Assembly (NCBI GenBank): GCA_027858735.1 | Contig: JAQICC010000266.1 | Span: forward strand, 1-62,326 | Source of the DNA: Salinivirgaceae bacterium | GTDB lineage: Bacteria; Bacteroidota; Bacteroidia; Bacteroidales; SZUA-534 | Direction of reading: 5' to 3' | DNA length: 62,326 bases | Shown here: one piece after another, positions 2,903 to 53,285 of the stretch | Layout of the letters: each line of letters starts with the position of its first letter | Position numbering within the stretch: position 1 is the first letter of the stretch | The notes under the pieces: generated by a model | The model's input: only the letters and a program-made list of their open reading frames with translations | Told to the model about the DNA's origin: nothing | The model's database searches: none | Program-made: the position numbers and the translations under genes

Positions 2903-5437
2903 ATGATAAAGTCTTTTTTTATAGTAATATTATTGTTAGCTAATGCTACAAGTCAATTAACTGCACAAAGTCATAAAATATTATCGGAACGCCACCTTGG
3001 TTCTGACGGGCAGGAAGGAATTGAAACCTATGCATTAATTAAAAGTGTTTTAGGTCCCAACCCTATTGAAGCACCGGATTTATATTCTGACAATCATCCT
3101 GATGTTAAACACATTATTGAAGAAAACGATTCCATTGTAGGCAATCATTTTACCTTTTTAATTCACCGCGATATTGATAAAGATAGAGATACTGACAACA
3201 CAGATAGACAGCGTAATGAAATAAAAGCATATAGTGGTTCCGATGATGAACTAAAAGCTTTTTCCGGTGAATCGCTACGTTACCATTGGTATTTTCAGCT
3301 TGAAAAAAATTTTTCCATATCAAATAACTTTAGCCACTTTTTTCAGTTAAAAGCTGTAGGTGGTAGCTATTCAAGTCAACCAGTTGTTACTATTAGTGGT
3401 AGTATAAACAGTAGTAAACAGCAATTTGAAATTATACATAGCCGATTAACCGGTAGCGAAGATGAGCAATTGGCAAATACTAATTGGGACAGGGCAAATA
3501 CCGGAGAATGGATGGAGATTGAAGTATTAGCTACCTACAAAGATAGCGGATACCTGAAAGTTTCCATAACCAACCTTAACGGTGACACCATATTATCAAC
3601 CGAAAACAAAAAAATTGATATGTGGCGTGAAGGCAGTGAATTTGTTCGTCCAAAATGGGGGATTTACCGAAGTTTATCCACCAAACAGTTTTTAAATGAG
3701 GATGAAGAACGGGCACGTTTTGCCAATTTTACGGTGCAAAAAGTAATTTTAAATTACATTCCAACTCCTCCTTATGCGGCAATCAATCCGTACCCTTTAA
3801 ACAATGGTGAATATATTGATACGGCTTTTACTTTTAATTGGATAACCGGCACAAATACCACTTATAGTAAATTATTTTTGGGGAAATCAAATGAATTGAA
3901 CCTTAGCAATTTAGTTGATAGCACCTTTAATTCGATGCTTAGCATTGATGCTTTAGTGCCTAATACCAATTATTATTGGAGAGTTGATGTTGTGAATGAA
4001 GATGGTATAACAAAAGGGGAACTTTGGCACTTTAAAACTGCACCCAAAGCTACAAACTGCAGCGAGTCTAATATTCTAGCCATCAATGAAGTAAATGCAT
4101 CTACAGAATTAACCGAATATCCGAAAATAAGCATTACCGATAATAATTTGGAAACAGGTTGGGGTTTTGCTGGTGAACAGCAATGGATTGAACTAAACCT
4201 AGGCATTGAGGCTAACTTAAGTTATTTAATGCTTGCATTTTACCAAGGCGATGAGCGCTACCATAATTTTGAAATTCATGCCTCTTCCGATCAGGTAAAC
4301 TATAGCACCTTGGCAACCTACAGAAGTTTTGGTATAAGTTTAAACTTACAAAAAGTGCTTGTACCGGAAACAAGTGCTCAATTTATTCGCTTTGTAAGTA
4401 CTGATACTTTTAGTACTGCTGAACCACTTGTTATGGAAATGTATGCCTTTGGCTGTGGTGGACAAATTGACAAACCAACCCATTCTGAACTAATTTACCC
4501 CGAACAAAATGCCGAAAATATAGCAACAAGCATAATCTTAAGTTGGAATGCGGGCATTGGTGCCAAAAGTCATAAACTATATTTAGGTACTAATGAAACG
4601 TTAACTGATAACGATTTAGCAAGTGAAACAAACAACACTTTTTTTGATATTAAAGACCTTAACCCCAAACAAACCTACTATTGGCGTGTTGACGAGCTAA
4701 ATGAAGCAGGTACTACTACCGGAGAAATATGGAGTTTTACCACTACCTATGAAATTACCGAGTTGCTTATTCAGGAAAATGAAGCAGGATTTATTTCGCT
4801 TGACGGTACTATAGAAAACACACACACAGGCTACACAGGAGATGGCTACGCAGACAGTAATGATGAATCGGGTGCAAGTATTTCATGGAAAGCTATTGCT
4901 GTTGATAATACTTATATGCTTAAATGGAATTATGCCAATGCAAGTTCAAGTAATGCAAGTGCCTTTGTGAAAATAAACGATAAGGCAGTCGGAATTATAA
5001 ATTTTGTACTAACCGAAAACTGGAATACTTGGGCTCTTGATTCAGTAAACGTATCGCTGGTTGAAGGTGAAAACACCATTACATTAAGTGCACTTGGTTC
5101 TGCCGGTTTAGCAAATATTGATTACCTACTTATTCGTGGAGAAAATATTACGTCAGTAACTCCGGTGGATTTAAATATCACAACACGCTCACTCATAAAT
5201 CCTTACCCCAACCCATGTACAAGCATACTTAACATTGCACATAATGGGCTAAACAACAGCAATGCGCAAATTGAGATATATGACCTTTCTGGAAAAATAA
5301 TGTATAATAAAAATGTTACGACCGGCACTGTTAAAAATGAAATATCAATAAACATTAACCACCTTGAGAAGGGCTTGTATATAATATTTGTAAAAACTGC
5401 AGAGCAAAGTGTTAGCAGAAAATTTATAAAAAAATAA
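2903..5437 (+). CDS. T9SS-secreted putative beta-jelly-roll polysaccharide lyase (PF14099/heparin-lyase-I-like) + Fn3-like + F5/8C (CBM32) + Fn3-like + CBM35/CBM6-like + T9SS CTD
   Basis: signal peptide; DRQRNEIK, HFFQLKAVGG, RPKWGIYRSL; two YYWRVD repeats; TGYTGDGY..WNYANAS..GENTITL..NIDYL module; YPNP..GLYIIFV tail. Confidence 0.65.
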   Translation: MIKSFFIVILLLANATSQLTAQSHKILSERHLGSDGQEGIETYALIKSVLGPNPIEAPDLYSDNHPDVKHIIEENDSIVGNHFTFLIHRDIDKDRDTDNTDRQRNEIKAYSGSDDELKAFSGESLRYHWYFQLEKNFSISNNFSHFFQLKAVGGSYSSQPVVTISGSINSSKQQFEIIHSRLTGSEDEQLANTNWDRANTGEWMEIEVLATYKDSGYLKVSITNLNGDTILSTENKKIDMWREGSEFVRPKWGIYRSLSTKQFLNEDEERARFANFTVQKVILNYIPTPPYAAINPYPLNNGEYIDTAFTFNWITGTNTTYSKLFLGKSNELNLSNLVDSTFNSMLSIDALVPNTNYYWRVDVVNEDGITKGELWHFKTAPKATNCSESNILAINEVNASTELTEYPKISITDNNLETGWGFAGEQQWIELNLGIEANLSYLMLAFYQGDERYHNFEIHASSDQVNYSTLATYRSFGISLNLQKVLVPETSAQFIRFVSTDTFSTAEPLVMEMYAFGCGGQIDKPTHSELIYPEQNAENIATSIILSWNAGIGAKSHKLYLGTNETLTDNDLASETNNTFFDIKDLNPKQTYYWRVDELNEAGTTTGEIWSFTTTYEITELLIQENEAGFISLDGTIENTHTGYTGDGYADSNDESGASISWKAIAVDNTYMLKWNYANASSSNASAFVKINDKAVGIINFVLTENWNTWALDSVNVSLVEGENTITLSALGSAGLANIDYLLIRGENITSVTPVDLNITTRSLINPYPNPCTSILNIAHNGLNNSNAQIEIYDLSGKIMYNKNVTTGTVKNEISININHLEKGLYIIFVKTAEQSVSRKFIKK

Positions 5438-5473
5438 CACCTATATCAGAGAAATTCAATTCTAATTTTGAAT

Positions 5474-5740
5474 CCCACATTGTGGGTTTTATTCCCCGCA
5501 GCTTGCTGCGTATAAAAGTTATTTTTACCATTGCGATACCTCGTCTGCTTGCAGCACAATGTCAATAAGTTTGTGTTTTTAAAACGCCAGCCGGAATGAC
5601 TCAGTCAGGCAGGCAGAAAGATCTAAAGATGCTTTCTGGTTTTGGCTTAATTCGACCTTTCATCGTTGAACGACATGAAAGCGTGAATACAACAAACAGC
5701 TTAACTTATTGACATTAGCTTGCAGCGAGGTTATTCATTT
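5474..5740. repeat. small palindromic non-autonomous repeat element hosting a MITE
   Basis: hairpins CCCACA-T-TGTGGG (5474-5486), CGCAGC-TT-GCTGCG (5497-5510) and a CCTCG...CGAGG pair split by the insertion. Confidence 0.45.
5558..5716. mobile_element. MITE, about 160 bp, non-coding
   Basis: perfect 14-bp TIR AATGTCAATAAGTT (5558-5571) / AACTTATTGACATT (5703-5716); direct repeat GCTTGCAGC at 5547-5555 and 5718-5726. Confidence 0.75.
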
Positions 5741-6050: not shown

Positions 6051-6075
6051 AACCTTAAAACCAAACTATTAACTA

Positions 6076-7653
6076 TTATTTTAAAACCATTTTCTTGGTA
6101 GCAACTTTAGTACCTGCTTCAACTTTGTAAAAGTAAATACCCGATGTTAAACCCGATGCATTTAATTCAATGGTATGATCGCCTGCATTAAGCTCTGAAT
6201 TCAATACGGTTTGAACCTCAGCACCCGTAATATCGTAGACCGAAATCGTAACTTTTGATGCATTTGCCAAACTAAACTGAATGTTTGTTTTGTTTAAAAA
6301 TGGATTTGGATAACATGTCACATTGAAACCGGAAGCCCCTTTATTAGTGAAAATATTAGTGCCATCATCAAAATGCAATTGACAACCAACAGGTTCTCCA
6401 TTATCATCAGCTTTATACGAAGCATAGGTGCTCGCATACGACACATCAATTTCATCGTAATACAAACCGCCATCGCCTCCAACACACCAACTATCAGGCA
6501 GTTCTAAACTCAAAGGGTTTGCATAATAATTAGCAACATACCCTGCAATATTTCCACAGGTATTTGCAAAAACTAAAGGCTCTGAAAAATATGCCTTTTC
6601 AACATTTGCTTCACCAATAGCTGCTTTTACAGTTGAGCAAATATAATTTGGCGATTCAACAGTGTCATATAAGCTCCAGGCATTATGAATGGCCTCATCC
6701 CAAAAAATATTGTTATTTCTAACTTCAATACTTTGCCCACTATAAATTGTATCGAGTGCAATTACTGCAAAATGACCATCGGCCTGGTTTTGTTCCGCAG
6801 CATTAGCATCGGTATGCCCAATACTAATTACATTGGCAAAAACATTATTGGTAATTATTGCCTTACGCGCATTAGCCAAATCAAGACCTCCATTCCTTCC
6901 TACCGTATTAAGTGCGGTTAAATGGTCAACTTTCAAATAATTAACTAACGATCCTTCGTTACGAATTATTCTGTCGGTTAAATTATAGGTTAAACAATTC
7001 TCAATAATCAAGGTATCTACGTAGGACAATACATCGCTTCGTATTTCAATAAACCTACCATTACCATTCATTACATAGCGGTGCCCTAAGTTTCCCATTA
7101 CTGAATTTCGAACATAAACTTTTAGCGAATCAGCTTTAAGCAAAACTGCCCCAGAGTTATCGCCGGTTAATGCACAACCATCAATTATAAATCTGGAATT
7201 CGATTTGCGCATTTCAATCATGCGGTGTAAGTAAGCACCCCCGCCTTCATCACCATTAAAATATATATTCTTCAAAGTTAAATCGCTATATGAATCAATA
7301 TAATCGTTACCTGTAGTACCATCGCTTTTTAGTCCCACTATTATTTCAGGTAGAAAGCCATCATCATTAGTACCTTCACCTTCAATGTGCAAAGGGAAGT
7401 TATTTGAAATAATTTTCCCCAAGGGGTAAACATGATTTCTCTTAAGCATATATATGGTGTTTGGGTTTTCTGCTCTACCTAAAGTATCACCATAAATAAT
7501 ATCCCAAAGCACATTGTTATAATCATCAACTTCACCAACGGGGTTGTTTAAATCGTAACCTGAAACCTCAACTATTCTAGGTTCCTGCGCCTGAATTGTT
7601 GAAAAGCTCAACAGCAAACAAACACTCACTAATAATTTGTAAATATTTTTCAT
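6076..7653 (-). CDS. T9SS-secreted right-handed beta-helix protein (DUF4957/DUF5123-like), partner of receptor 1
   Basis: signal peptide, Asn/Ile/Val-rich coil repeats, C-terminal YPNPF..IYDITG..GIYFYKV; 24 bp after the receptor stop. Confidence 0.75.
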   Translation of the reverse strand: MKNIYKLLVSVCLLLSFSTIQAQEPRIVEVSGYDLNNPVGEVDDYNNVLWDIIYGDTLGRAENPNTIYMLKRNHVYPLGKIISNNFPLHIEGEGTNDDGFLPEIIVGLKSDGTTGNDYIDSYSDLTLKNIYFNGDEGGGAYLHRMIEMRKSNSRFIIDGCALTGDNSGAVLLKADSLKVYVRNSVMGNLGHRYVMNGNGRFIEIRSDVLSYVDTLIIENCLTYNLTDRIIRNEGSLVNYLKVDHLTALNTVGRNGGLDLANARKAIITNNVFANVISIGHTDANAAEQNQADGHFAVIALDTIYSGQSIEVRNNNIFWDEAIHNAWSLYDTVESPNYICSTVKAAIGEANVEKAYFSEPLVFANTCGNIAGYVANYYANPLSLELPDSWCVGGDGGLYYDEIDVSYASTYASYKADDNGEPVGCQLHFDDGTNIFTNKGASGFNVTCYPNPFLNKTNIQFSLANASKVTISVYDITGAEVQTVLNSELNAGDHTIELNASGLTSGIYFYKVEAGTKVATKKMVLK

Positions 7654-7677: not shown

Positions 7678-10586
7678 TTAAAATTTATATTGAAGACCCA
7701 TATTAAATGAAGCACCATAACGATTTTCACGTGTCCAATGTTTTTCTACATATTGATAACTCCGCTCACTCTCGCTGGTAATATTGGCCAAATTAGCTGT
7801 TACCGTTACATGTTTACCAATTTTTTGACTCAAACTGGCATCAAAGCGAAGGAACATTGCTGTGAAACCTTCATGCTGCTCTTTAAAGTCTTTTGCAGTA
7901 CCTAGTTTCTTTAAAGAAGGAGACTGGTAAATCATAGAAAAACGACAGGAGAAACCTTTGTAATCGTAACCTATGGAAACATTGCCTGCTAATTCAACCT
8001 GATCGGGTAATACCGATTTATCTAAATATCCAACCGTATCATAAATACGAGATGTTACGCGATTCTCAATTACCGTAATTGGTTTTTCAAACCTTGGATT
8101 AAAGGTTTCAGACCATAAACGGGTTATGTTGGCATTAAATACTATTCCATTGAATGGCTTTGGTAGAAAAGATAAATTGGTTTGTAAATCAATTTCAAAT
8201 CCATAAACCTTCGAACCATCAAAATTTGCATAATCCTCATTCACGCTATAAGCTCCTCTCGGATAACCTTCTTTAATCGCTTGATCTTCTGTTAAGGTAT
8301 AATCAATTTCTGCAAAGAAATTATCGAACTCCTTATAAAAGCCCCCAACGGTAAATAAGCCCAAACGGTTTGCAAAAAACGAAGTCGTAACATCATAACT
8401 CCAGGCTTCAGCATGTTTTAAATTTGGGTTTCCTCTGAATAATTCGCTTTTATTTAAATTAAGCCAATAACGAGGGGTAACCATTGAATAGTCAGGACGG
8501 GCCAATGTTTTAACTGCCGACATACGCACATCGAACCATTGCACCGGTTTAATTTTTAAATGAAAACTTGGTAATAAAACCCCATATTTTTGGTACGAAC
8601 TTGTATCACGAATTGATCCGTTTTCAATAAAACCTGCAATATTCTGAATAATATCTGAATAATAACTATGGTAATCGTTATTGGAATATTCATAGCGTAA
8701 TCCAGGAATAAATGTTAACCAGGAACTATAATTAATTTTTGTCATTATATAAGCCGCAGAAACACGTTCTGTTAAAGTATAATTCTTATAGGCTTTATCT
8801 AACTGAGGGTAAAGTTCTCCCTGATTACGACTGTGCCATAAATCTACATAATCCATATCTATTTCTGGATTTATAAGGTATTCACCATCCCATATTTGAA
8901 GATCGGTTGGTTTGCTATAAAAATTTTGCATGCTAATCCCAGGATCAAGAGTAACTAACTCTTGAGGGAGCATATTTTGTACTGCTTTATCACTTACACT
9001 TGCATCATTATAGTAACTTAATACGGTTTGGTGATTGTGTTTATTTGAACGATCTTCAATTCTATACTTTCCCCCTACCTTTACAAAACCAGCAATTTTA
9101 TCTCCAAAAGAATAATCGGTTTTAAAATCGAGTGCTGCTGTAGTGTTATTTTGCTTGCTTTTTTCAGGTTCCCAATTGTATTGATTTAAATAACCCTTTT
9201 CATAATTATAAACTCGTGTTTGTAATAATTCTTCTGTTGATATTACATATTGTTCTTCAGCCGTTGTACCACGTGACGATCCTTCAGGTTCAAGCAAATA
9301 CATATTTACATCATATAAATTATCATTAACTGTTTGGCTTCTGGCTAAGGTCCAATCCATTGAAACAATACTAACCCTTTGCTGACCCGACAATACTCCT
9401 TGATACGTATACTGTTCTGACTTAGTATGACTTGGCAAATGACGTATTTCTTCGCCATGGTAAATTCTATTCTCGTTCTTTAAGGTTTCCCCATTACGCT
9501 GCGAGAAAAAACCTTGTCCAACAACAAAACCCGAATTGTATTTATAATCGGCAGTTAAATTTCCACCCATTCTTTTAATGGTTCTTAAGTCTTGACGTAT
9601 GGTAGCACTTTTAAATGCCCACTCCTCATATTCATACTGGCTATCATCAAAGAAGTTTGATATTGTTTGAGAACTACGATTCACATTTTCATAACTCAAT
9701 TGTCCAATTAAACCCAGTTTTCCTTCGTAAAAACGTTTGCTTAAATCAACTGAACCTTTATAATTTGAAAATTTATTGGTTAAACCGTTATAACCACCAC
9801 TAGTGCGTATTTTAGCACCGGGTTTATCTGGGGCTTTCGATACTCCAAGGTTCACAATACCTCCAATGGCATCACCATCCATATCGGCCGTAGGCGATTT
9901 ATATACTTCAATGCTCGATAGTAATTCAGGCGATATCATACTTAAATCAACCGATCGGTCACTATCATCTACTCCATTTGAGGTAGATGCAACTTTAACT
10001 CCGTTAATGGTTATTGAGGTTAATTTTGGGCTTAATCCGCGAACCGTAACCTTACTCGCCTCTCCACCCGAACGAGTTACTGATATACCCGGCAAACGAC
10101 CAATGGCCTCGGCAGCATTCACATCGGGTAATTCTTCCATTTTGTCGGACGACACTACACTAACCAAAGCATCGGAATTTAACTGTTGATTTAATGCCTT
10201 AGCCTGTCCTAGTATTTGTACTGATACTACCACCTCGCCTATATCTACAGCATCAAAAACCAGGCTCATATCAAATTTTTTTATTTCACCTGCTCCAATT
10301 TCAATTTCTGTTTTCTCGGTTAAAAAACCGATGTATGAAAATGCCAAAGTATATTTACCTGGCTTAATATTGGTAACGCGGTATTCACCATCCATATTGG
10401 TAATGGTACCTATACTGCTACCTACAATTGCAACGGTGGCTCCTGGTAGACATCGTTGCTCATACCATCTTTCACTACTCCATATATTTCAGCATTTTGA
10501 GCAAAAGCTCCCACTGAAAATATCAGAAATAAACCTATGGTAAATAATTTCTTCGGTTTCTGTGATTTTATAAAATTTAAATTCAT
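7678..10586 (-). pseudogene. TonB-dependent receptor 1 (non-SusC type) with a 1-nt frameshift near 10450
   Basis: ATG 10586 frame (signal peptide, GVVKDG) stops at 10422; the shifted frame continues LPGATVAIVGSSIGTITNMDGEY into the 905-aa ORF with plug and barrel ending in F. Confidence 0.85.
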
Positions 10587-10702
10587 TTTCCTTTTGATTT
10601 TTTTGTTCAAAAAAATATAAACACTCCACTCTTGAGGCTTTACAAACATAAAAAACAATACATTGATTATAAGAATTATAAGCAAGCGATTTTTATTATT
10701 AT

Positions 10703-10731
10703 TGTCTCAATTTTTAGAATATTTGTTGCAA
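10703..10731 (-). promoter_or_regulatory. tandem half-site motif (candidate HTCS site) upstream of receptor 1
   Basis: + strand TGTCTCAA (10703) and TGTTGCAA (10724), 21 bp apart; -7 box TATGTTTG on - strand at 10650-10643. Confidence 0.6.
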
Positions 10732-10967: not shown

Positions 10968-13169
10968 TTATAATTTATTGAACAGTTTCGAGGTACGCTG
11001 ATTCTCACCATTTATAATAAGAATGTAGCTACCAGTTTTAAGTGACCTTACATCAATGGTATTTTGATTTTTATTAGCTTTTGTAGTAAACATGGTTTTT
11101 CCTAACATATCAAAAACCATAACTTGAACAGGTGCTTCCGATAAACCTGAAATAGTTACATAACTATCGCTACTTGAATTAGGATACAAACTAATTTCAT
11201 TTGCAATATCTCTGGTTACACTAACCATCCCGTTTTTAAGCCCATCGCAAGGCGAGGTAGCAGAAGTACTGAAATAAATGGTGTAAGCTCCCGTTTTTTC
11301 GGCTAGTACAAAGTTATCGCCATCCATTATGGCATAGTAATCGCCATCAAAACCTGAGAAAACACTACCTGATATCGAAATTTCAGGCTGGCTGCTATTC
11401 AATGTATGCGTTACGGCACCCAACATACTTACATACCAATTTGGAACACCGTTATCGGTATTAAAGGCAAATGTATATAAGCCATTGTTTTCAAGACTCC
11501 AGTTTATACTGAACTTTCTTATGTTGCCTAAGTCCGGTCCATTATCTGATACAAAAATATTGCTATACGAAGTATTTATTGTTGGCAAAGCCGATGTCAT
11601 TGGTGCAAAATTGCAATCATCGTTACCACCATCACTTGTTACTGTTACAGCACAATTATCGGTTTTGTTGCCATCGGCAGTTGTTACCGATATTGTAGTA
11701 CTACCCGCACTAACAGCTGTTATTAAACCTGAACTATTTACTGTAGCTACAGCAGTATTGTTTGAACTGTATGATACTGTTTGGTTTGTAGCATCTGAAG
11801 GCGATACCGTAACTGAAAGCGACTGTGTTTCACCTACAAGAAGCGATACCGAAGAAGGACTTAAACTAACTGCGGTAACAGGAACTGTAGTAGCTTCACC
11901 TTCAACAATCTCAAGCTCGGTAAAACTTACCCAGTCACCAGTATAACCTGTTGCTCCAGTAACAGTTAATTCTAAATATCTACCACTTGTTGCTGTAAAA
12001 GAATGTTCAATAGGCTGATCTGCAGCAGTTCCTGACTGATCTACTACAGTTGTAAAACCACTTGAAGGAGAATCAGAAATACCAATTGTATAATGATAAG
12101 ACCTGTCTTGATACGTCCATACTTTTGTTCCGGTTATCGATTTTGTTTCACCATAATCAATTACTACCGATTTTGGAAATCCATTTGCACTCCAACGTGA
12201 AGCATCATCGGGGTTGCCATCAAATAAATTTTCGCCAACATTTGGATCTTGTTCAGCATCAACAGATTCAACAGTAATAGTAGACTGATCGACATCTCCA
12301 CCACCGGGGTAACCTATGCGTGAGGTGGAAACAATGATGTCGTCAAAATACGCATACTCGTCTTTTTGGGGCTGAAATGTTTCATCAGTTCCACCAAAAA
12401 AGGTCGATAAATAAATGATATTCATTTTAATATCACCTTCACCGGGTTGTCTATAATCACCATGATCGGTAATGTCAATCGCCAACTTACCGTCTAGCCA
12501 ACCACGCATAATACCGTCGTTTTGACCTGGTGTATTAAGCTTATAATATAATTCCACATGATTCCATGCACCCTTTTTAAACTTAACTTGATCGGGCTGA
12601 GGTTGTCCATCGGGTTCGTCATTAGGATTTATAAGACTCCAGTTAATTGATGCCTTAAAATCTTCACGTGAGGGTTCTGTGTTATAATGTACATAATATT
12701 CAACCAATCCATTATAACGCCACATTAGGCGAAGAGACATATTTCTGTCTTCGGTTTGGTAGGCTAATCCAGGTAATTTACCACCTGCTCTAAATTCGAA
12801 ATTTGCAGGAAAGTAAATCGAGTAACTCATATAAAGTTCATCGTGCTCCTGTCCATCCTGAAAAGTAACCTTTGTGTGCATACCACTATTGGCAGTTTTT
12901 ACGCCACCTTTCGGGTATTTTACATCAAGCACATTACCATGTCCAGAAGCACTAGAAATATACACACGTCCTTCGTCCGCTCCATTGCAAAATTTCACAT
13001 CAAGCCCCTCTTTTACGGCATCTTCATCATACTGTCCTGTGCTTAGGTTGTTAAAATCGAACTTGTGCACGTCCTGTGCAAAGCTATTGGTGCTAGTTGT
13101 AAATATTGCAACGGCAATAAATAACAGAACACCTATGTATTTAGTATTTATTTTATCGAAATATCTCAT
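10968..13169 (-). CDS. T9SS-secreted PL14-family polysaccharide lyase + F5/8C (CBM32) + Big_2 + unclassified module + T9SS CTD
   Basis: VKYPKG, FEFRAGGKLPGL, MRGWLDG, YLSTFFGG typical of PL14; DASRWSA F5/8C; VPVTAVSL Big_2; LYPN..GSYILII tail. Confidence 0.8.
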   Translation of the reverse strand: MRYFDKINTKYIGVLLFIAVAIFTTSTNSFAQDVHKFDFNNLSTGQYDEDAVKEGLDVKFCNGADEGRVYISSASGHGNVLDVKYPKGGVKTANSGMHTKVTFQDGQEHDELYMSYSIYFPANFEFRAGGKLPGLAYQTEDRNMSLRLMWRYNGLVEYYVHYNTEPSREDFKASINWSLINPNDEPDGQPQPDQVKFKKGAWNHVELYYKLNTPGQNDGIMRGWLDGKLAIDITDHGDYRQPGEGDIKMNIIYLSTFFGGTDETFQPQKDEYAYFDDIIVSTSRIGYPGGGDVDQSTITVESVDAEQDPNVGENLFDGNPDDASRWSANGFPKSVVIDYGETKSITGTKVWTYQDRSYHYTIGISDSPSSGFTTVVDQSGTAADQPIEHSFTATSGRYLELTVTGATGYTGDWVSFTELEIVEGEATTVPVTAVSLSPSSVSLLVGETQSLSVTVSPSDATNQTVSYSSNNTAVATVNSSGLITAVSAGSTTISVTTADGNKTDNCAVTVTSDGGNDDCNFAPMTSALPTINTSYSNIFVSDNGPDLGNIRKFSINWSLENNGLYTFAFNTDNGVPNWYVSMLGAVTHTLNSSQPEISISGSVFSGFDGDYYAIMDGDNFVLAEKTGAYTIYFSTSATSPCDGLKNGMVSVTRDIANEISLYPNSSSDSYVTISGLSEAPVQVMVFDMLGKTMFTTKANKNQNTIDVRSLKTGSYILIINGENQRTSKLFNKL

Positions 13170-44370: not shown

Positions 44371-47300
44371 TTATTCTGTTAAGTATATTTTTTTTGTTAT
44401 GCTCATATTATCATAGCTCACCTTTGCAAAGTATAAAGACTCTTGTAAACCAAGTTCAATGGTGTTTTTGCTTTCAAAAATGCGTTGCCTATGAATTAAC
44501 TTACCCCCGCTATTATAAATATGAACACTTGCTTTATTAAAATTTACATTGGAAAAATTCACATATACTGTACTATTAAAACAATACACGCTGGGTTTTG
44601 CTTGCTCACTTTGATTGACAGAAACAATACTTTTTATAAAGGCTGACTTTGAACTTTTTTCAGATATTCTCCCTTCGGTATCGGCTGCAAAAGCGTAATA
44701 ATATCCTTCTTTTAAATTAAAAGTAGATATCTCAATAGTATCATTTGCATTAACATTTCTAACTACAGTGCCTAATCCATTGCTAAGCGCTTGTTCCATA
44801 TCCTTTACATTTTTGGGTACCTGAGTAATAAACAATAGAAAAACATCACCCTTTTTGCTACTTTTTGCAATAACAAAATCCGTTTCGCCACTTGATACTT
44901 CTTGCGATGCCATAGTAACTATCGGTCGTAAATCGGGTACTTGAACGCTAGTTTGGCTTATTCCATTAATTAATGCCCCATTGTTTGCTTTTACATATTG
45001 CACCTCTATAATAATCAGTGAATTATAAGGTAAAAATCCTATGGAACTAAAATTAAGGGATACGGTCACTGAATCAACTTCATTTACTATTTTTGGGCTA
45101 CCTGTTAATCCGGCACTGCCATTAGCTATGTAATTGGTGTTTTTTAGTGCTGAAACCCTTTCAAATGGTTGATTAAACTTTAATTCAACTGTTGAATCAT
45201 TAATATAGAAACCCTGATTCCCCTGCAATCCAAAATCGGTATAAATACCCCTATCTGATTTTTGTGCTAAATAGAGTGATAACGGGTTTAACCCATCAAC
45301 ATTAGCACCATCCCATTCACCACGAGGACGGTCACCAAATGTATCATCATTAACATAGCTGCCTTTAAATCCGATACAATAGTTTTTAGCCGACACCCAT
45401 GGATTTTGGCAAATTGCTGTTTTTCCTTTACAATTCCACATTACCTGATTAACACCGGCCCAACCATGACCAGTCCCATAATTTGAACGGTCACGCACAT
45501 TCAGCTCATTATCTGAGGTAACTACATCGTACAGCGTTCCTACTGCCCACCGGTGATGTGGACCAATATCATTACTTGCTTTGGTGGCAGTACAATAACT
45601 AAATACATTTGGACCACAAACTCGTGATCCGGTTACATAATCGTGCCGACCTTCGCTTGCCGAGCAATTTGAAATTAAACTGGTTTGACCATTGCAATTA
45701 AATGAGTATCGACGTCCACCAGTAACCACTGATTTTGGACTAAGTGATGTGCAATTTGTAACGGTAATATACCTTGCATACGAGCTAATATTTGCACAGG
45801 AATAGGCAAAGTATTTAGCTGTTATATTTTTAGCCCAACAATGTTCTGCTCTGTTAAAATAAACTGCATTCCATGCATGATTTTCATCGGTTTCACTTGC
45901 ATAAACTGATTGCAGTTGCATATTCTCAATGCCACAATTTTGAATGCGCTCGTTAAAAGTACATTTGTAAACTTTTCGCGAATCGTTATAATTAACATCC
46001 AAAGCCATAACAATAGGATTGTAAAAAAATATACTGTCTCCTGTTGATCCTGAAGCAATGCGTTTCACTTCTCGTTCAAAATTAAAAGCATAATCGGATG
46101 CTACCCATTGGTTAACATCACCATCATCAGGAATTTGATCCATTTTAAGATCGTTAACCCAAGCTTTATTAAACTGTTGGTAAATACAAATATGATCGCT
46201 TGTGCTAAATTCATGACCTTTGGGTACTATAACATACTTTGCTCCTACAGGAATATACGATGGTACAATGTTTTGAACACTACTGGCTATTTTGTTTAAT
46301 GATCCGCTTGCTGCACCAACCTTTATTAAGGATGAACCTTCGCTTTTACTTGTTGCAATTAAAATAGTTCCATCATTCCCTTGCCCTTCGCCTCTTAAAA
46401 CAATTCCTTGTGAACGAAGAGAAATATCGGATGAAAATTCATAAGTACCTGCCTTAATTAAAATGGTCCCTTTAAAACCTTCGCTATTTAGGTTTGTATT
46501 TTGAGCTACCGAATCAATAATATGTTGAATATAGCTTGTAGCATCTCCCTCTATTGGACTAACACTTGCCAATACCGCTAATTCAGGTAATTTTTTTTCA
46601 CCTCGTCTATAACCCACATGGCTAAAATCGGGAATTACATCGCCCTTTTTATCGGCTCGGTATTTTAATTTTCCGTTTTGATTATATTTTAAAAAATACG
46701 ATTCCCATTTTCCATTATCATCAGGTGTTGGAACTACCCAAACCCCTTGATTTTCATAGTTATTAGGATTATCACCGATATCAATCGAATCTTCGGGTTC
46801 AGCATTATATTCCCATGGCAAAATTCCTATATTATCACCATCGTTGGCCTTAGAAAAAAGTGACTCGTTGGTAACAAAATAGTTGGCATCGTATTTAGGA
46901 TTATAGTATAAACAGCTTTGTCCTGTTGAACTTCCTAAATCCGCACAACGATAAAAGTCGCAATAATCTAGTTTAGCTCCAGCAATTAATTTAAAAGGAT
47001 TGGCACTTTTTGAATTCGAAAAAACAGAGTTTTCAATGCTAAGATCGCTAGCATTTTCTATACCTATAATTGGAAAAGAATCTGCTACAGAAATACTATC
47101 AAAAACACAGTGATTAATAGAAATTGACCCGTTGGTGAGGTTAGCATTTTCAGAAAAACAAATAACTTCTTTTGCGTAGTTTGCAAAAACGCAACTCTTA
47201 AATTCAAGAGACGCAAAAGAAGCTTCTTTGTTAAACTCACTTACTACTAACTCTATTGATCTACTATTATGAAATAAACAATTATTAAAAAATATTTTAT

Positions 47301-47796
47301 CTGCAAATGTACCAGCTAAGCATTTAACGACACATTCTGGTATATTTTTGAATTCACAATTTTGCATAAATAAGTTATACTGGCTTGGAGCTATATTTTC
47401 AGAACCTATTTCAATGGCATTTGCGATAGAAACTTCGTTCGCACTATTTGAAAAAATAAGACTAATTACCTCAACCGTGCAGTTATTTAATATTTGAAAC
47501 ACCGACTTATTAACAGAATCGGCTGTTTGAAGAATTGGTTTATCAACCATATCCTCTCCCATTATGGTAATACTTGCGGATAATAAAACTTGGTTTTCAA
47601 AACAATAATTTGCTCCTGATGATGTAAGAATAAAAATATCACCATCAGAAGCATTCGATATTGCAATAGCAAGATCGTTTGCATAAAATCCATTAATGGG
47701 TGCAGTAAACCTGTAGGTATTAGCCAATGAGGTTTGAGCTAATGCTATAGCAAATAATGGTACAAATATTTTAAATAGCTTTATAATTATTCTCAT
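44371..47796 (-). CDS. T9SS-type exported protein: DUF4957-like beta-helix + unclassified pectate-lyase-3-like beta-helix + Ig domains + CTD
   Basis: N-module GDIFILTSSGANY..KPIL..NIGILPW; central IPDFSHVGY, GRRYSF, GRHDYVTG, GPHHRWAVG, GHGWAG; Ig modules shared with the giant protein. Confidence 0.65.
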   Translation of the reverse strand: MRIIIKLFKIFVPLFAIALAQTSLANTYRFTAPINGFYANDLAIAISNASDGDIFILTSSGANYCFENQVLLSASITIMGEDMVDKPILQTADSVNKSVFQILNNCTVEVISLIFSNSANEVSIANAIEIGSENIAPSQYNLFMQNCEFKNIPECVVKCLAGTFADKIFFNNCLFHNSRSIELVVSEFNKEASFASLEFKSCVFANYAKEVICFSENANLTNGSISINHCVFDSISVADSFPIIGIENASDLSIENSVFSNSKSANPFKLIAGAKLDYCDFYRCADLGSSTGQSCLYYNPKYDANYFVTNESLFSKANDGDNIGILPWEYNAEPEDSIDIGDNPNNYENQGVWVVPTPDDNGKWESYFLKYNQNGKLKYRADKKGDVIPDFSHVGYRRGEKKLPELAVLASVSPIEGDATSYIQHIIDSVAQNTNLNSEGFKGTILIKAGTYEFSSDISLRSQGIVLRGEGQGNDGTILIATSKSEGSSLIKVGAASGSLNKIASSVQNIVPSYIPVGAKYVIVPKGHEFSTSDHICIYQQFNKAWVNDLKMDQIPDDGDVNQWVASDYAFNFEREVKRIASGSTGDSIFFYNPIVMALDVNYNDSRKVYKCTFNERIQNCGIENMQLQSVYASETDENHAWNAVYFNRAEHCWAKNITAKYFAYSCANISSYARYITVTNCTSLSPKSVVTGGRRYSFNCNGQTSLISNCSASEGRHDYVTGSRVCGPNVFSYCTATKASNDIGPHHRWAVGTLYDVVTSDNELNVRDRSNYGTGHGWAGVNQVMWNCKGKTAICQNPWVSAKNYCIGFKGSYVNDDTFGDRPRGEWDGANVDGLNPLSLYLAQKSDRGIYTDFGLQGNQGFYINDSTVELKFNQPFERVSALKNTNYIANGSAGLTGSPKIVNEVDSVTVSLNFSSIGFLPYNSLIIIEVQYVKANNGALINGISQTSVQVPDLRPIVTMASQEVSSGETDFVIAKSSKKGDVFLLFITQVPKNVKDMEQALSNGLGTVVRNVNANDTIEISTFNLKEGYYYAFAADTEGRISEKSSKSAFIKSIVSVNQSEQAKPSVYCFNSTVYVNFSNVNFNKASVHIYNSGGKLIHRQRIFESKNTIELGLQESLYFAKVSYDNMSITKKIYLTE

Positions 47797-48204: not shown

Positions 48205-51200
48205 CTATTGCTTTTTTGAATTAATTAGGTTGGCATATTCCTTTGGTGTTTTATTGTAGTACTTTTTAAAACTGGCTATAAAATGCGAAGCACTTGAGAA
48301 ACCACATTCAAATGTTATTTGGTTAACATTTAATTCGCCTTTCACCATTAACTCGGTGGCATATTTTAAGCGAACAACTTTTATAAACTCATTGGGTGAA
48401 TGATTGGTTAAAGCTTTAAATTTTCTGAATAACTGGCTTCTGCTTAATCCTAACTTATCACCCAAATATTCAACCGTTAAATCCGGATCACTTTTTTTAT
48501 CGAAAATTATTTCCTGCACCTTTTTAATGAATTCATCTTCCATGGTGTAAAACTCTCCTTCTGGGATATCGCTTACTATATGTCCGGCAAATCTTTCTTG
48601 TAAGGCTTTTCTCTGCAGCAACAGGTTACACACATTGGCATTAAGCAATTCAATGTTAAATGGTTTTTCCATATAAATATCGGCACCAGAGTTCGTTCCT
48701 TCTACTTTATGTTCAATATTTGCTTTTGCGGTAAGTAGAATTACTGGAATATGGCTGGTTATTTGATTGCTCTTTACTGCTTTACACAGTTCCATTCCAT
48801 CCATAACCGGCATCATTACATCTGAAATTATTAAATCGGGCAAATATTTTTTCGCAAGTTTAAATGCATCTTTTCCATTTTCGGCATCGTATAGCATGTA
48901 ATGCCTAAAATGGCTTTTAATAAATTCCCTTAATTCCAAATTATCTTCAACAACCAAAATCGATTCATTATTTTCTGCATCAGTTTGGGAACTGAACTGG
49001 GGTATAACTTCGGGCACCGGCTTATGCTGAGCATCGAGAATATATTTACTTTTCGTTTTTATTTCGTCGGGAGCGTACCCCATTTTGCTTATGGGTATTT
49101 TTATAGTAAATGTTGTTCCCTTATTTTCTTCACTTTCAACGGTTATTTCACCTTTATGCAATTCAACCAGGCTTTGTGCAAAGGAAAGACCAATACCGGT
49201 TCCCATACTTTTGGTATATTTCAAACTATCATCACTATAAAAACGCTCAAAAATCCAGGCTAGCTTTTCTTTTGTTATTCCTATTCCTGTATCAACTACC
49301 TTAATTTCAGCTATTTCATTGTCACATTTCAAGCTTACCGATATTTGACCTGATGCTTGTGTAAACTTTATTGCATTGGATAAAAGTATGAAAATAACAT
49401 TGTCCACCACATTTTTATCAAACCAATAATTTGAGCTATTTTCACCATCCGTTATTACTTTCAGTTCAATATCTTTTTGTTTACAAAACTCACTAAAACC
49501 CTGAACTACATCTTGTAAAAATATAGCTAAATTACCTGATGAAACATTCAGTTTCATCTTTTTATTTTCAAGCTTGCGAAAATCCATTAATTGATTGATT
49601 AGTCGGTGCAAACGCGACATGTTTTTATGCATTAAAGCATATAGGTAGTTTTTTTCTTCAGCAGGTATGGAGGGAATTTTCATTAGCTTTTCAAGTGGAC
49701 CCGAAATAAGTGTTAAGGGCGTACGGAATTCGTGCGAAATATTTGTAAAAAATCGCAATTTCATTTGATTAAGCTCCTCTATGCGCTGTTTTTCAAGGCG
49801 TTCATTTTCAAGTAAGTTTTTTTGATTTGTACTAAACACTACTATTTTTCTAAAAGCCAGCAATAGTAGCGCTATTAAAACTATATAAATAACAAATGCT
49901 AATCGGGTTCTCCAAAAGGGCGGTAATACCGTAATTTTAATCTGCGTTCCTTCGTTATTCCATAGGTTATCGTTATTTGAAGCTTTAACTTTAAATATAT
50001 ATTCACCCGGAAAAATATTTGTATAGGTAGCCCGGTGATTTTTACCGGCATTTACCCAATCACTATCAAAACCTTGGAGCATATAGGCATACTGATTCTT
50101 TTGGGGTTTGTCGTAATTCAGCGATACAAACTCAAAACTAAACGACGATTGCCTATGCGTAAGTATGAGTTGTTTAGTTTTGCTAATATGTTTGCTAAGA
50201 GGTGAGTTGTTACCATATTTTTCAATTTTAGTGTTTGCAAGGTAAAAACCCGTGATTACTACTGGCGGCTTTGTTGCATTGCGAGATATTTTTAAAGGGT
50301 TAAAAGCATTAAAGCCTTTTAATCCACCAAAATAAAAAGTACTGTCGATTGAAACAAATGAGGCTCCCCTATTAAATTCATTGCTTTGTAATCCATCGCT
50401 TACATCGTAATTCACGATTAAAGTGTCGGTTTTAAAAGGCAAATTATAATGTTTTGATAATGGGAATTTTATTAAACCATTATTTGTGCTTACCCAAAGA
50501 TTATGTTTAACATCGCACTTTATACCGTAAATAACAAAACCTTGAATACCTTGTTTCTGTGTGTATTGCACTACCTTTTCACTATCAGGATCAACAGAAA
50601 ACATTCCACTACCTTCCGTTCCAACCCAAATGGTTCCAAAATTATCATATCCTAACGATAAGGTATTTATCGTTTCATTGCCGTTCAATATATCAATCCA
50701 TCTAAACGTTTTATTATTATATACTAAAAGGCCTATATCAGTAGCAAACCAAACATTGCCATTCTCATCTTCAATAATGTCATTAATCGTTTCTCCGTTT
50801 ATAAGGTCACCTTCTTTTGTATACAATGGAACACGACTAAACTTATTGCTTTGAGGGTTAAACATATTAATGCCCCCCATATTGGCGCCTATCCAAATAC
50901 GATCTTTTGTATCGTGATAAATAGAATAAATATAGTTGCTGGAAATAGTAGTTGAATCAAGAGGATTATTCTGATAATTTATAAACTGCTTCCGTTTAAT
51001 ATCATAAATATCGAGACCTCCACCATAGGTGCCTATCCATAATTTATCGTTATTATCAATATATAAAGCCTTAACATTATTATTTACCAAACTATTTTGA
51101 TTTGGCTTATTCAAAAGCGTAGTAAACTTATTTGTTTTTTTGTTAAGCATATTAACACCACCACCTTCGGTGCCTACCCAAATAGTATTTTTTGAGTTTT

Positions 51201-52311
51201 GTGCAAAAGAGCTAACAATATGGTAACTTAAACCATTGTTAATGTAAACATTGGGCTTATATAGCGTAAAATTATTACTCGATCCATAAATTACGTTAAT
51301 ACCTCCATAATAAGTACCAAACCATAAATTACCACTATTGTCTTGTATTATAGAACGAATGGAATTATTTGATAAGCTATTGTCATTTAACTCTTCATTA
51401 TAAAAATAGCTAATTTCACCTGTATAACCGTCAACTAAATTTAATCCAACTCTAGTACCAATCCAAATATTGCCCTCTGCATCTTCACAAATGGCACGTA
51501 CCGCATTGTGACAAAGTTGCGGATCAGTATTCATTGAATAATGCTTATATGTTTGGCTTTTAAGATTGAATTTTGTTAAGCCGTGTTCATCGGATCCAAT
51601 CCACAAATTATTTTTTAAGTCGCTATATATAAGTCGAATAGAATTTGAAAGCAATCCACAAAAATTATTACTATTGGTTAAAACATAGCTTAAGTTTCCT
51701 TTTGAGTAAATAGCTATTCCATCACCTTTTGTACCTATCCATATTTGACCATCGGGCAACTCAACGATAGTTCTCACCTTTGCCTTTTCAAGATTTTGAT
51801 TGCCATCAAAAAGAGGTTCAAAAGTTTGTTGTTCAATATAAAACACACTTACTCCACCTCCATCAGTTCCTGCCCAAATATTTCCTCTGGAATCGGCCAA
51901 TAGTGCATAAACATGATTGTTGTTTAATGATTGTTTATTGGTCTCGCTGTGCACAAACCGGGTGAACGAATCGGTATTTTTATTATAAACGTTAAGGCCA
52001 TAGTTCGTACCTACCCATATTTGACCATGCTGGTCTTCAACTATTGAAAAAACTTGATTGTCTGAAATTGATGTTGTATCGGCATCATCGGTTCTATAAA
52101 TTTTAAACTCATAACCATCATATCTGTTTAATCCATCACGTGTACCTATCCATATAAATCCATCAGAATCTTGCAGCATACAGTATACGGTACTTTGCGA
52201 CAAACCATTTTGAACCAACAAATGGTTAAATACCGCCTTGGACTGGCTTTTAACTGCAAAATTTTGCCCCATTACAATTAAGAGCAGAATCAGTAATTTG
52301 AGTATCTTCAT
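48205..52311 (-). CDS. hybrid two-component system sensor-regulator 2
   Basis: GLSQSTV, IGTRDGLNRYDG, FTNISHEFRTPLTLI, GTGIGLS, ISDVMMP, GLSRSQLFRKFK. Confidence 0.97.
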   Translation of the reverse strand: MKILKLLILLLIVMGQNFAVKSQSKAVFNHLLVQNGLSQSTVYCMLQDSDGFIWIGTRDGLNRYDGYEFKIYRTDDADTTSISDNQVFSIVEDQHGQIWVGTNYGLNVYNKNTDSFTRFVHSETNKQSLNNNHVYALLADSRGNIWAGTDGGGVSVFYIEQQTFEPLFDGNQNLEKAKVRTIVELPDGQIWIGTKGDGIAIYSKGNLSYVLTNSNNFCGLLSNSIRLIYSDLKNNLWIGSDEHGLTKFNLKSQTYKHYSMNTDPQLCHNAVRAICEDAEGNIWIGTRVGLNLVDGYTGEISYFYNEELNDNSLSNNSIRSIIQDNSGNLWFGTYYGGINVIYGSSNNFTLYKPNVYINNGLSYHIVSSFAQNSKNTIWVGTEGGGVNMLNKKTNKFTTLLNKPNQNSLVNNNVKALYIDNNDKLWIGTYGGGLDIYDIKRKQFINYQNNPLDSTTISSNYIYSIYHDTKDRIWIGANMGGINMFNPQSNKFSRVPLYTKEGDLINGETINDIIEDENGNVWFATDIGLLVYNNKTFRWIDILNGNETINTLSLGYDNFGTIWVGTEGSGMFSVDPDSEKVVQYTQKQGIQGFVIYGIKCDVKHNLWVSTNNGLIKFPLSKHYNLPFKTDTLIVNYDVSDGLQSNEFNRGASFVSIDSTFYFGGLKGFNAFNPLKISRNATKPPVVITGFYLANTKIEKYGNNSPLSKHISKTKQLILTHRQSSFSFEFVSLNYDKPQKNQYAYMLQGFDSDWVNAGKNHRATYTNIFPGEYIFKVKASNNDNLWNNEGTQIKITVLPPFWRTRLAFVIYIVLIALLLLAFRKIVVFSTNQKNLLENERLEKQRIEELNQMKLRFFTNISHEFRTPLTLISGPLEKLMKIPSIPAEEKNYLYALMHKNMSRLHRLINQLMDFRKLENKKMKLNVSSGNLAIFLQDVVQGFSEFCKQKDIELKVITDGENSSNYWFDKNVVDNVIFILLSNAIKFTQASGQISVSLKCDNEIAEIKVVDTGIGITKEKLAWIFERFYSDDSLKYTKSMGTGIGLSFAQSLVELHKGEITVESEENKGTTFTIKIPISKMGYAPDEIKTKSKYILDAQHKPVPEVIPQFSSQTDAENNESILVVEDNLELREFIKSHFRHYMLYDAENGKDAFKLAKKYLPDLIISDVMMPVMDGMELCKAVKSNQITSHIPVILLTAKANIEHKVEGTNSGADIYMEKPFNIELLNANVCNLLLQRKALQERFAGHIVSDIPEGEFYTMEDEFIKKVQEIIFDKKSDPDLTVEYLGDKLGLSRSQLFRKFKALTNHSPNEFIKVVRLKYATELMVKGELNVNQITFECGFSSASHFIASFKKYYNKTPKEYANLINSKKQ

Positions 52312-52439
52312 TTTTAGTACATTAAGAAATAGTTTAAACCTTCCTTCATATTTTACTTGAACAACTTGTTTTATTATGCATTTTCACCACTATTCTCATC
52401 ACAAATAAATATTCAACCTACTGTAAATTACTTTCATTT

Positions 52440-53285
52440 TTATAACTTCTTCCATTGCCACTGCCAATATAAATAACCAATAGGTCCAGTAATACTTTCG
52501 TTTGCATCGGCAAAATTTGCGTGTAAAAATGCAAGCTCTACTCTAAATGAATTTAAAAAACCCTTAGTGCTATTTATAAATGGAGCAATTCTGCTAGCTA
52601 TTAAAATTTGTTGTTTCCTAATAATATTATCGGCGTATAAAAACGTAGATCCATAGGAGGCCGTAGTATGCAGAGTAATCCATTTCTTTAAGAAATAATC
52701 AAGCCCAATAGAAAAATCAGGACTAATATAATTTTGAAACGTTTTACCTATAATATTTATACTATCGCCATTTGAAATAGATATAAAATCGGTATAGCTA
52801 GCACCACCTGATAAATGAAGATGAATATTGTTATTTAGCTGCCAACTCATGTTTATTCGATTATACCAATTATTTCCTTCTCGTAGAATTTTTAAATAAT
52901 CAAGGTTATGAAACTGGTCTAATTCATTATCCAAAAACTGATACATTGTTTCAAATGCAATGGCAGGGCGAGCGTTATTTTGATTGGCAAGTGCAAAACG
53001 AAAATTAAAGCTGGGCACTCCACCTAACCAACACTCAAAATCTAATTCAGCCGTAATTCTATCGGTAATTCCCCACCAAGCCCAACTCGGATATGGAGTT
53101 AATGCCTGATTATAAATCCACGCCCCTTTATTTAAAGTATAGCCTGTAAAGGCATCAGCAGGATGAAGCATCGTTTCATTTATCAAGCTTTTGTGAGATG
53201 ATTGAGTAGACTTATTCTGGGAATAAGCATAACAATCCAGCAATAAAAATGCAAATACATAAGCTATAAAGTACTTGTATGCCAT
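52440..53285 (-). CDS. hypothetical exported protein, aromatic-rich, possibly an outer-membrane beta-barrel
   Basis: signal peptide; alternating hydrophobic strands; ends GYLYWQWQWKKL; no family recognised. Confidence 0.6.
   Translation of the reverse strand: MAYKYFIAYVFAFLLLDCYAYSQNKSTQSSHKSLINETMLHPADAFTGYTLNKGAWIYNQALTPYPSWAWWGITDRITAELDFECWLGGVPSFNFRFALANQNNARPAIAFETMYQFLDNELDQFHNLDYLKILREGNNWYNRINMSWQLNNNIHLHLSGGASYTDFISISNGDSINIIGKTFQNYISPDFSIGLDYFLKKWITLHTTASYGSTFLYADNIIRKQQILIASRIAPFINSTKGFLNSFRVELAFLHANFADANESITGPIGYLYWQWQWKKL

Follow-up and report, generated by a model that had tools for sequence, protein, structure and literature searches.

Known glucuronan and alginate systems and the locus of this study

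Beta-1,4-glucuronan is considered a rare natural polymer, yet its lyases occur in bacteria, fungi, viruses and molluscs. To our knowledge, no glucuronan transport and regulation system has been characterised experimentally. Here we describe a gene cluster of approximately 50 kb (positions 2903–53285, nearly all genes on the minus strand) from an uncultured Salinivirgaceae bacterium of the Bacteroidota, which probably serves the utilisation of a beta-1,4-linked, glucuronic acid (GlcA)-rich polysaccharide of the glucuronan/cellouronate type together with an associated beta-1,4-glucan. The cluster lies on contig JAQICC010000266.1 of assembly GCA_027858735.1, and this stretch of 62,326 nucleotides, which is one entire contig (C427) of a 6.0-Mb genome (98.9% complete, 452 contigs), is called the window below. 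An earlier note on the same DNA had proposed glucuronan rather than a standard alginate polysaccharide utilisation locus (PUL), and this proposal is supported in silico by a GH88 enzyme and a GH2 beta-glucuronidase (GUS), by the synteny of one clade of PL38 lyases (PL38a), by the absence of the canonical alginate lyase families and by the habitat.

Glucuronan-degrading enzymes are known from the CUL-I/CUL-II system of Brevundimonas sp. SH203 and the glucuronan lyase system of Trichoderma (PL20, PL7, PL38), and we know of no transport or regulation locus described for either. In these systems, as predicted for the window, an endo glucuronan lyase acts before an exo step on the unsaturated dimer; the endo lyase is a PL38 enzyme or a PL20-type jelly roll, and the exo step is carried out by a lyase, whereas the window has GH88 and GH2 for it (in part from PMC12423752). 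The founding members of PL31 are also endo-beta-1,4-glucuronan lyases (PMC6442616). Among gut bacteria, Bacteroides luhongzhouii showed growth on both cellouronate and glucose (Tanaka et al. 2025, PMC12423752). Its genes include three of the PL38 family, two of them with consecutive accessions, and its lyase BlCUL1 gave 31.1 U/mg on cellouronate versus 3.7 U/mg on alginate (approximately 8:1, or about 12% side activity) and no activity on six other polymers; the product is an unsaturated dimer, and the authors postulated a missing dimer-degrading enzyme (PMC12423752). That paper does not describe a locus, and predicted "beta-glucuronan" substrate classes have been published as well (PMC12961874). 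In the literature searched, there was no account of a glucuronan locus in Bacteroidota, and within this scope the statement of the earlier note, that no described one is known, still holds.

Gut Bacteroides possess a PL38 cluster, for which the literature searched likewise gave no description as a PUL. In B. ovatus/vicugnae its order is HTCS-GH88-GH2-PL38a-PL38b(=3NFV)-SusC-SusD-TIG-TIG-PL38c, in which HTCS is a hybrid two-component sensor. It shares with the window the sensor and orthologues of PL38a (54% identity), GH88 (65%) and GH2-GUS (55%). Unlike the window, it has SusC/SusD and TIG-domain surface proteins, and its lyases are PL38 only, whereas the window has non-SusC TonB receptors with partner proteins carrying the tail of the type IX secretion system (T9SS), and adds secreted PL31-GH8, PL14-type, PF14099-like and beta-helix enzymes.

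In marine Flavobacteriaceae, CelAly degrades the alginate and cellulose of kelp, and ClGP, a Cellulophaga GH5+PL31 protein 61% identical to CelAly, is cited as having glucuronan lyase activity (both in PMC13235733). Like the window, these proteins join PL31 to a beta-1,4-glucanase and carry Big_7, UKD and a T9SS tail, with the common idea of a single polypeptide attacking a glucan-polyuronide composite. The window differs in having GH8 instead of GH5 and PL31 in the first position, and PL31+GH8 is not among the four types of PMC13235733; furthermore, strains with CelAly possess complete alginate loci, which the genome of the window lacks. The canonical alginate loci (Zobellia, Gramella, B. ovatus CP926) resemble the window in their uronate lyases, outer-membrane import, periplasmic oligomer lyase and 2-keto-3-deoxygluconate (KDG) route. 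In contrast to them, the window has no PL6/PL7/PL17 and no SusC/SusD, and has GH88 and a beta-glucuronidase, which are absent from alginate loci. Proteobacterial carbohydrate loci with TIGR01782 TonB receptors have the same receptor subfamily and no SusD, as in the window, but here the genome is that of a Bacteroidota and the receptor is always followed by a T9SS-anchored uncharacterised protein of about 520 amino acids (aa).

The genes of the locus are listed below, with the evidence in brackets (CTD, C-terminal domain; AF2, AlphaFold2).

2903–5437, plus strand: 844-aa T9SS cargo with jelly-roll lyase-like domain, CBM32-like, FN3, CBM35 and CTD (Pfam, AF2 fold)
6076–7653, minus strand: partner protein A, 525 aa, T9SS-tailed, body without family (paralogue of partner B, 26% identity)
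7678–10706, minus strand: TonB-dependent receptor A, TIGR01782 type, frameshifted (353 bits versus cut-off 310)
10968–13169, minus strand: 733-aa T9SS cargo with PL14/PL36-type jelly-roll lyase, CBM32, Big_2, UKD and CTD (Pfam, PDB matches)
13238–17803, minus strand: 1521-aa T9SS cargo with PL31, Big_7 (B1-like), GH8, two Big_2, CBM6/35, CBM32, Big_2, UKD and CTD (PDB matches)
18227–19408, plus strand: PL38 lyase of the PL38a clade, signal peptide, predicted periplasmic (PF05426, 3NFV, 8BDQ, tree)
19601–20797, minus strand: GH88 unsaturated glucuronyl hydrolase, lipoprotein-type signal (3WIW, 3e-118)
20984–22531, minus strand: partner protein B, 515 aa, T9SS-tailed, uncharacterised family (synteny)
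22567–25605, minus strand: TonB-dependent receptor B, TIGR01782 type, intact (372 bits versus cut-off 310)
26235–30284, minus strand: hybrid two-component sensor/regulator 1 (orthologues head the same cassette elsewhere)
30338–31744, minus strand: PAS histidine kinase (domain search)
32137–41757, minus strand: 3206-aa exported protein with five DUF5123-containing beta-helix modules (domain search)
41914–44355, minus strand: GH2 beta-glucuronidase, signal peptide, predicted periplasmic (6D7J, E=0; 6D1P, 1e-292)
44371–47796, minus strand: 1141-aa T9SS cargo, core (aa 363–850) an unclassified right-handed beta-helix (AF2 model)
48205–52311, minus strand: hybrid two-component sensor/regulator 2 (domain search)
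52440–53285, minus strand: 281-aa exported protein without family, putative locus member (signal)

The GH88 and GH2 enzymes are predicted to act on glucuronate ends

The closest solved structure to the GH88 gene product was the Pedobacter GH88 enzyme 3WIW, followed by the unsaturated glucuronyl hydrolases of Bacillus and Streptococcus (approximately 5e-52). These sequence matches place the protein in GH88, and the Pfam model matched weakly (29.9 bits versus a cut-off of 26.6). The family acts on 4,5-unsaturated glucuronyl ends. The GH2 product gave near full-length matches to the gut beta-glucuronidases PmGUS (6D7J, 1101 bits) and BuGUS-3 (6D1P). It contains the catalytic Glu418 (N417-E418) and Glu502, as well as W578 and N597-Q-K599-G, that is, the N-x-K motif, which in GUS enzymes reads the carboxylate. 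The names PmGUS and BuGUS-3 for 6D7J and 6D1P follow bioRxiv 10.64898/2026.06.20.733316.

From these assignments, GH88 and GH2 are predicted to be glucuronate-specific exo-enzymes. Together they are exactly the set for finishing unsaturated GlcA-(GlcA)n, and neither of them has a role in alginate breakdown.

PL38 and its genomic neighbourhood

The lyase at 18227–19408 matched PF05426 (E=1.6e-79) and, over about 300 residues, the PL38 structures 3NFV (3e-55) and BoPL38 (8BDQ, 2e-37), and this full-length similarity to solved PL38 enzymes makes it a member of the family. Orthologues (53–66% identity) are frequent among Chitinophagaceae, Sphingobacteriaceae, Spirosomataceae, Bacteroides and other groups. 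We used 57 PL38-orthologue loci with full 10-kb flanks, and a neighbour was counted as an orthologue at 45% or higher identity to the GH88 or GH2 of the window. GH88 and/or GH2 lay within 10 kb of the PL38 orthologue in 35 of the 57 loci, and both were present in 18. PF14099-type lyases and one PL31-like gene also recur near PL38a.

In a phylogenetic tree of this PL38 with its orthologues and paralogues, the PL38 of the window was placed in a clade of 100% support with the Bacteroides copy that lies beside GH88/GH2. This PL38a clade is apart from a paralogue clade of the 3NFV type, and 3NFV itself stands closer to BoPL38, an alginate lyase. A look-up of the clusters of the Bacteroides PL38 proteins returned B. 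ovatus/vicugnae accessions only, and a homologue search gave Bacteroides sp. HF-5092 and others, so that the link to BlCUL1 and CUL-I is an indirect one. The GH88 and GUS of the Bacteroides locus would fit the dimer-degrading gap postulated by the authors of the BlCUL1 study.

A soil version of the cluster was observed in a Chitinophagaceae metagenome-assembled genome (MAG; L009, 361–17782), with GH2-GUS, a beta-helix protein, GH95, GH31, PL38, GH29, GH88 and two PF14099 lyases. The fucosidases in this cluster suggest that the substrate in that lineage is a fucosylated GlcA polymer. PL38a copies in a Williamsia MAG (L078, labelled Actinomycetota) and a Bacteriovoracaceae MAG (L031, labelled Bdellovibrionota) nest inside the Chitinophagaceae/Sphingobacteriaceae clades, which indicates binning contamination or recent transfer.

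Alginate markers, downstream catabolism and habitat

Neither the open reading frames (ORFs) of the window nor the whole genome contained PL6 (PF14592; the positive control gave a signal) or PL15/PL17 (PF07940; the control gave a signal in two genomes). PL7 (PF08787) was also absent from both, and this absence is weaker because its positive control gave no signal. Domain searches found no KdgF or 4-deoxy-L-erythro-5-hexoseulose uronate (DEH) reductase gene and no free cupin-sized ORF in the locus, and no genome-wide search was aimed at these two. The same markers had been reported as not recognisable in the window by the earlier note, and its observation is extended here to the genome for the four lyase families. 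The PL14-, PL31- and PL38-type domains of the genome are found only on this contig, and no sulfatases, hexosaminidases, rhamnosidases or fucosidases were found in the locus.

A search of the rest of the genome for kduI/kduD, as had been suggested, located them with uxaC, uxuB and uxuA on contig C162, in the order LacI-uxuB-uxuA-kdgK-(LarA-like epimerase)-gnd-MFS-kduI-kduD-uxaC-kdgK-eda, in which MFS is a major facilitator superfamily transporter. By its gene content, this contig appears to provide for saturated as well as unsaturated GlcA, with the branch that each requires. In a congener (G001), 4 kb separate the same hexuronate operon from the orthologue of the PL38 gene. We rejected kduI, and likewise uxaC, as evidence specific to the locus, because the genome also has GH28/GH105 clusters of the pectin type. 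Between kdgK and the MFS gene (C162, 5352–8285), a LarA-family "nickel-dependent putative hexonate epimerase" (661 bits) and a 6-phosphogluconate dehydrogenase were observed, and this arrangement is conserved in the congener.

Near-identical sequence is present in sequencing runs labelled "saline spring metagenome", and the habitat was assigned from this run label; the runs located for the sample were of DNA only. We count it in favour of glucuronan, as it is not a kelp habitat.

TonB receptors with T9SS-anchored partners

A Bacteroidota PUL in the strict sense has adjacent SusC-like and SusD-like genes, and the window has no such pair. Both receptors pass the TIGR01782 "TonB-Xanth-Caul" model, the SusC model TIGR04056 gave 48 bits versus a cut-off of 368, and domain searches of the ORFs of the window found no SusD domain. 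Receptor A is frameshifted near 10430–10490, so that its signal peptide, its first 45 or so codons and the beginning of its carboxypeptidase-regulatory domain lie in another frame (10422–10706 versus 7678–10488). The frameshifted sequence was identical and free of gaps in independent contigs from two runs of one study; it is therefore probably a real pseudogene or population variant and not an assembly slip.

Partner A lies directly downstream of receptor A. The two partners belong to an uncharacterised family of T9SS cargo proteins of about 500–530 aa, each of which follows a TonB receptor. A kinship of the partners with the PL31 protein, the giant 3206-aa protein or the 1141-aa protein was considered and rejected, as there was no BLAST-level similarity. 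Partner B in the window and its homologues in all four contigs examined were located after a TonB receptor and before GH88, and these contigs share the gene order of the window as follows (TBDR, TonB-dependent receptor).

L101: TBDR-partner-GH88 (synteny)
L102: HTCS-TBDR-partner-GH88 (synteny)
L100: HTCS-TBDR-partner-GH88-GH2, GH2 66% identical (synteny)
L103: HTCS-TBDR-partner-GH88-GH2-DUF4861-PL38-PL38 (synteny)

The GH88 orthologue of L100 (11623–12810, 52% identity), between the partner gene and GH2, is absent from the gene calls of that record. Orthologues of sensor 1 with 32–56% identity head the cassette in L100, L102 and L103. Since GH88, with or without GH2 and PL38, occurs in the same order in four of four homologue contigs, the importer appears to be tied to glucuronate-specific enzymes and never to alginate markers. 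DUF4861 proteins recur beside GH88/GH105 genes, both in the glucuronate cassette of L103 (15558–16535) and in a pectin PUL of the congener (G001:C41, 184938–186290), and would constitute an uncharacterised uronate-associated family.

Secreted lyases and other T9SS enzymes

The 1521-aa protein matched the PL31 lyase PsAly at residues 44–297 (6KFN, 9e-47) and the GH8 endoglucanase CelA at residues 533–835 (1CEM, 7e-72), the latter far above chitosanases and xylanases. Of its accessory modules, UKD matched 9KVN (3e-29) and the B1-like domain matched 9KVU (2e-21). The 733-aa protein passed PF21294 "Polysaccharide lyase 14" (E=9e-35); in the PDB its lyase domain matched the PL36 enzyme Aly36B (6KCW, 6e-10, 41 bits) about as well as the PL14 enzyme AkAly30 (5GMT, 3e-9, 39 bits), and vAL-1 scored 22 bits. 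The domain is best described as a putative PL14/PL36-type lyase, to which both families fit about equally. The 437-aa tails of the two proteins, composed of CBM32, Big_2, UKD and CTD, are 78% identical (10968–12280 versus 13238–14550), whereas their catalytic heads are unrelated, and this combination points to a recent module exchange. The CBM32 modules of the locus resemble those of the alginate lyase AlyQ.

Two more giant T9SS enzymes are encoded in the genome, both combining GH5 and GH8 with CBM64, CBM4_9 and CBM6/35 (C102:12811–18006 and C262:5492–11134), and on this ground the organism looks like a T9SS-based degrader of cellulose or beta-glucan. Compared with these cellulases, the PL31-GH8 protein has the look of a cellulase scaffold whose GH5 head was exchanged for a lyase. 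PL31-GH8 and the shared tail fit a composite of polyuronide and beta-1,4-glucan, and a copolymer of glucose (Glc) and GlcA fits equally.

The N-terminal domain of the 844-aa protein (aa ~25–300) reached no Pfam model, PF14099 included, although 17 of 33 homologues match PF14099 (best 2e-11). Its family has the invariant motifs R-Q-R-x-E-x-K, H-x-x-Q-x-K and R-P-K-W-G-I-Y-R. AF2 predicts a jelly roll (pLDDT 91), for which the top fold match is 2ZZJ, a PL20 glucuronan lyase (E=1.7e-8, TM 0.60 on target), followed by PL7, PL13, PL36 and PL14. We regard it, from the model, as a PF14099-related, unclassified jelly-roll lyase-like domain on the border of PF14099. The CBM35 of this protein matched 2W46, 2W87 and 2W3J (4e-22 to 1e-21), which are the uronate-binding set of Montanier et al. 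(PMC9843283).

For the core of the 1141-aa protein, the AF2 model (pLDDT 83) is a right-handed beta-helix of depolymerase-like form. The Klebsiella K1 capsule lyase 7W1C, which cleaves at GlcA, and phage tailspike depolymerases were the top folds, at low TM (0.3–0.4). Profile searches of the PDB gave no solved sequence relative for this core or for the N-terminal domain of the 844-aa protein. Stand-alone orthologues of the core (45–49% identity) lie 10 kb or less from PL38a in at least five other loci, and additional loci have weaker ones. The 3206-aa protein is a candidate multivalent surface protein, which may bind or depolymerise the polymer.

Taken with the finishing enzymes, the PL31-like, GH8, PL38-like, GH88 and GH2 calls of the earlier note were reproduced. 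Its PL14 call was broadened, in that the Pfam model agrees and PL36 scores alike, and its PF14099-like lyase was retained through the homologues and the fold, with the domain itself falling outside the model.

Flanking genes

The 281-aa protein at the end of the locus had no family in any search and no homologue in related loci. Outside the locus, the window encodes a protein with the Fibrobacter "Fib_succ_major" domain (56970–57650, E=6e-37) and a further T9SS-tailed orphan (57920–59098). Upstream of the 844-aa gene, gene relics similar to GH88/GH105 and GH28 were observed on the minus strand (1873–2831). The pieces 2158–2529 and 1873–2157 matched the C-terminal half of the GH88/GH105 model (E=1.9e-47, with one internal TAA), and the fragment 2580–2831 was judged GH28-like by eye. 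In the congener, the PL38 orthologue adjoins an intact pectin PUL with GH28 and GH105. From these relics and the congener arrangement, part of a pectin PUL may have given way to the present locus.

Proposed mechanism

Outside the cell, T9SS enzymes with uronate- and glucan-binding modules would cut the polymer by beta-elimination and the glucan by hydrolysis; the secreted set would comprise PL31-GH8, the beta-helix protein and two further lyases, one of the PL14/PL36 type and one PF14099-like with CBM35, and the giant protein may belong to it as well. Oligomers with unsaturated GlcA ends would enter via the TIGR01782 receptors, beside each of which the T9SS-anchored partner of about 520 aa may take the place of SusD. 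In the periplasm, PL38 would shorten the oligomers, GH88 would take off the unsaturated end residue and the GH2 beta-glucuronidase the saturated GlcA, an order that we infer from the enzyme families and signal peptides. The MFS transporter encoded on C162 would then feed the cytoplasmic routes, in which unsaturated monomers would pass through KduI and KduD, and GlcA through UxaC, UxuB and UxuA, and both branches would lead to KDG and on to KdgK and Eda. The two hybrid two-component sensors would induce the genes.

Alternative substrates

Several points weigh against the glucuronan reading. We know of no natural glucuronan source in a saline-spring habitat. Of the two receptors, receptor A has a frameshift, and the genome also has pectin-type GH28/GH105 genes. 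The orthology of the PL38 of the window and BlCUL1 is inferred from synteny, clade membership and consecutive accessions, and not from a direct sequence comparison. The PL14, PL31 and PL38 families all include alginate lyases, and the locus has B1-like and UKD domains as in CelAly (GH5+PL31+UKD), which acts on alginate and cellulose and whose UKD and B1 bind alginate (PMC13235733). A GlcA-containing heteropolymer is not distinguishable from homoglucuronan. Such a heteropolysaccharide with a beta-linked backbone, for example a microbial capsule or extracellular polysaccharide, or a micro-algal or cyanobacterial sheath polymer in which Glc and GlcA alternate, is the main rival, though an unlikely one in our estimate. 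The lyases would then cut at GlcA and GH8 at beta-1,4-Glc links, and GH88 and GUS would finish the fragments. The fusion of GH8 and a lyase in a single polypeptide, the giant multi-beta-helix protein and the resemblance of the 1141-aa core to capsule depolymerases (best 7W1C) are in line with it, but the last of these matches is weak, and the other GH8 modules of the genome are in plain GH5+GH8 cellulases, so that GH8 here may be a cellulase module. In Chitinophagaceae, clusters that have the PL38/GH88/GH2 trio also contain GH95, GH29 and GH31, from which relatives in some lineages probably handle more complex, decorated GlcA polymers; in the window, domain searches found no side-chain-removing glycosidases or esterases in the locus, and pure beta-1,4-glucuronan supports the growth of gut Bacteroides that have this trio (PMC12423752).

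A CelAly-type system, in which the lyases would cut mannuronate-rich alginate of algal or bacterial origin and GH8 would cut cellulose, was a real alternative for the earlier note; it is kept here as a minor one, clearly less probable than the heteropolymer. The PL31-glucanase fusion with Big_7 and UKD is as in CelAly, which acts on polyM, polyMG and cellulose and in which UKD binds both kinds of polymer (PMC13235733), and the AlyQ-like CBM32 modules and the side activity of BlCUL1 on alginate (PMC12423752) are also compatible with it. However, this substrate leaves GH88 and the beta-glucuronidase without a role, the genome has no matches to PL6, PL7, PL15 or PL17, the PL38 belongs to the GH88/GUS-linked clade and not to the BoPL38/3NFV side, the receptor is found together with GH88/GH2 in the cassettes of other contigs, and the DNA comes from a saline spring. 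A glycosaminoglycan, ulvan or pectin locus, the classical context of GH88/GH105, is very improbable. The solved GH88 nearest to that of the window comes from Pedobacter heparinus, which degrades heparin, and the relics at 1873–2831 resemble GH105 and GH28. However, lyases of PL8/12/13/21, PL24/25/28/40 and PL1/9/10 are missing from the locus, as are sulfatases, hexosaminidases, rhamnosidases and any intact GH28, and these targets were rejected because they need such families.

Implications of the glucuronan reading

As a tentative wider proposal, less secure than the substrate prediction itself, the window may be the most elaborate case of a widespread, undescribed glucuronan system, whose core of sensor, PL38, GH88 and GH2-GUS would occur in two transport versions, one with SusC/SusD in gut and soil Bacteroidota and one in which a TonB receptor with a T9SS partner replaces SusD. 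In the same proposal, the PF14099-related jelly roll, the beta-helix of about 500 aa and the receptor partner would found three new families.

If this is true, glucuronan-like polymers would be no rarity but would commonly serve as natural sources of carbon in soil, in the gut and in saline mats. The orphan gut Bacteroides structures 3NFV (an "alginate lyase"), BuGUS-3 and PmGUS, which were solved or studied for other reasons, would gain a candidate physiological substrate. The secreted enzymes of the PL31-GH8, PL14-type and unclassified lyase-like kinds might find practical use on TEMPO-oxidised cellulose (cellouronate) and on polyuronides from algae or microbes. The non-SusC TonB receptor with its T9SS-anchored protein would represent a second import solution in the Bacteroidota, and the locus and its relatives offer a testable gene set of sensor, importer, PL38, GH88 and beta-glucuronidase.

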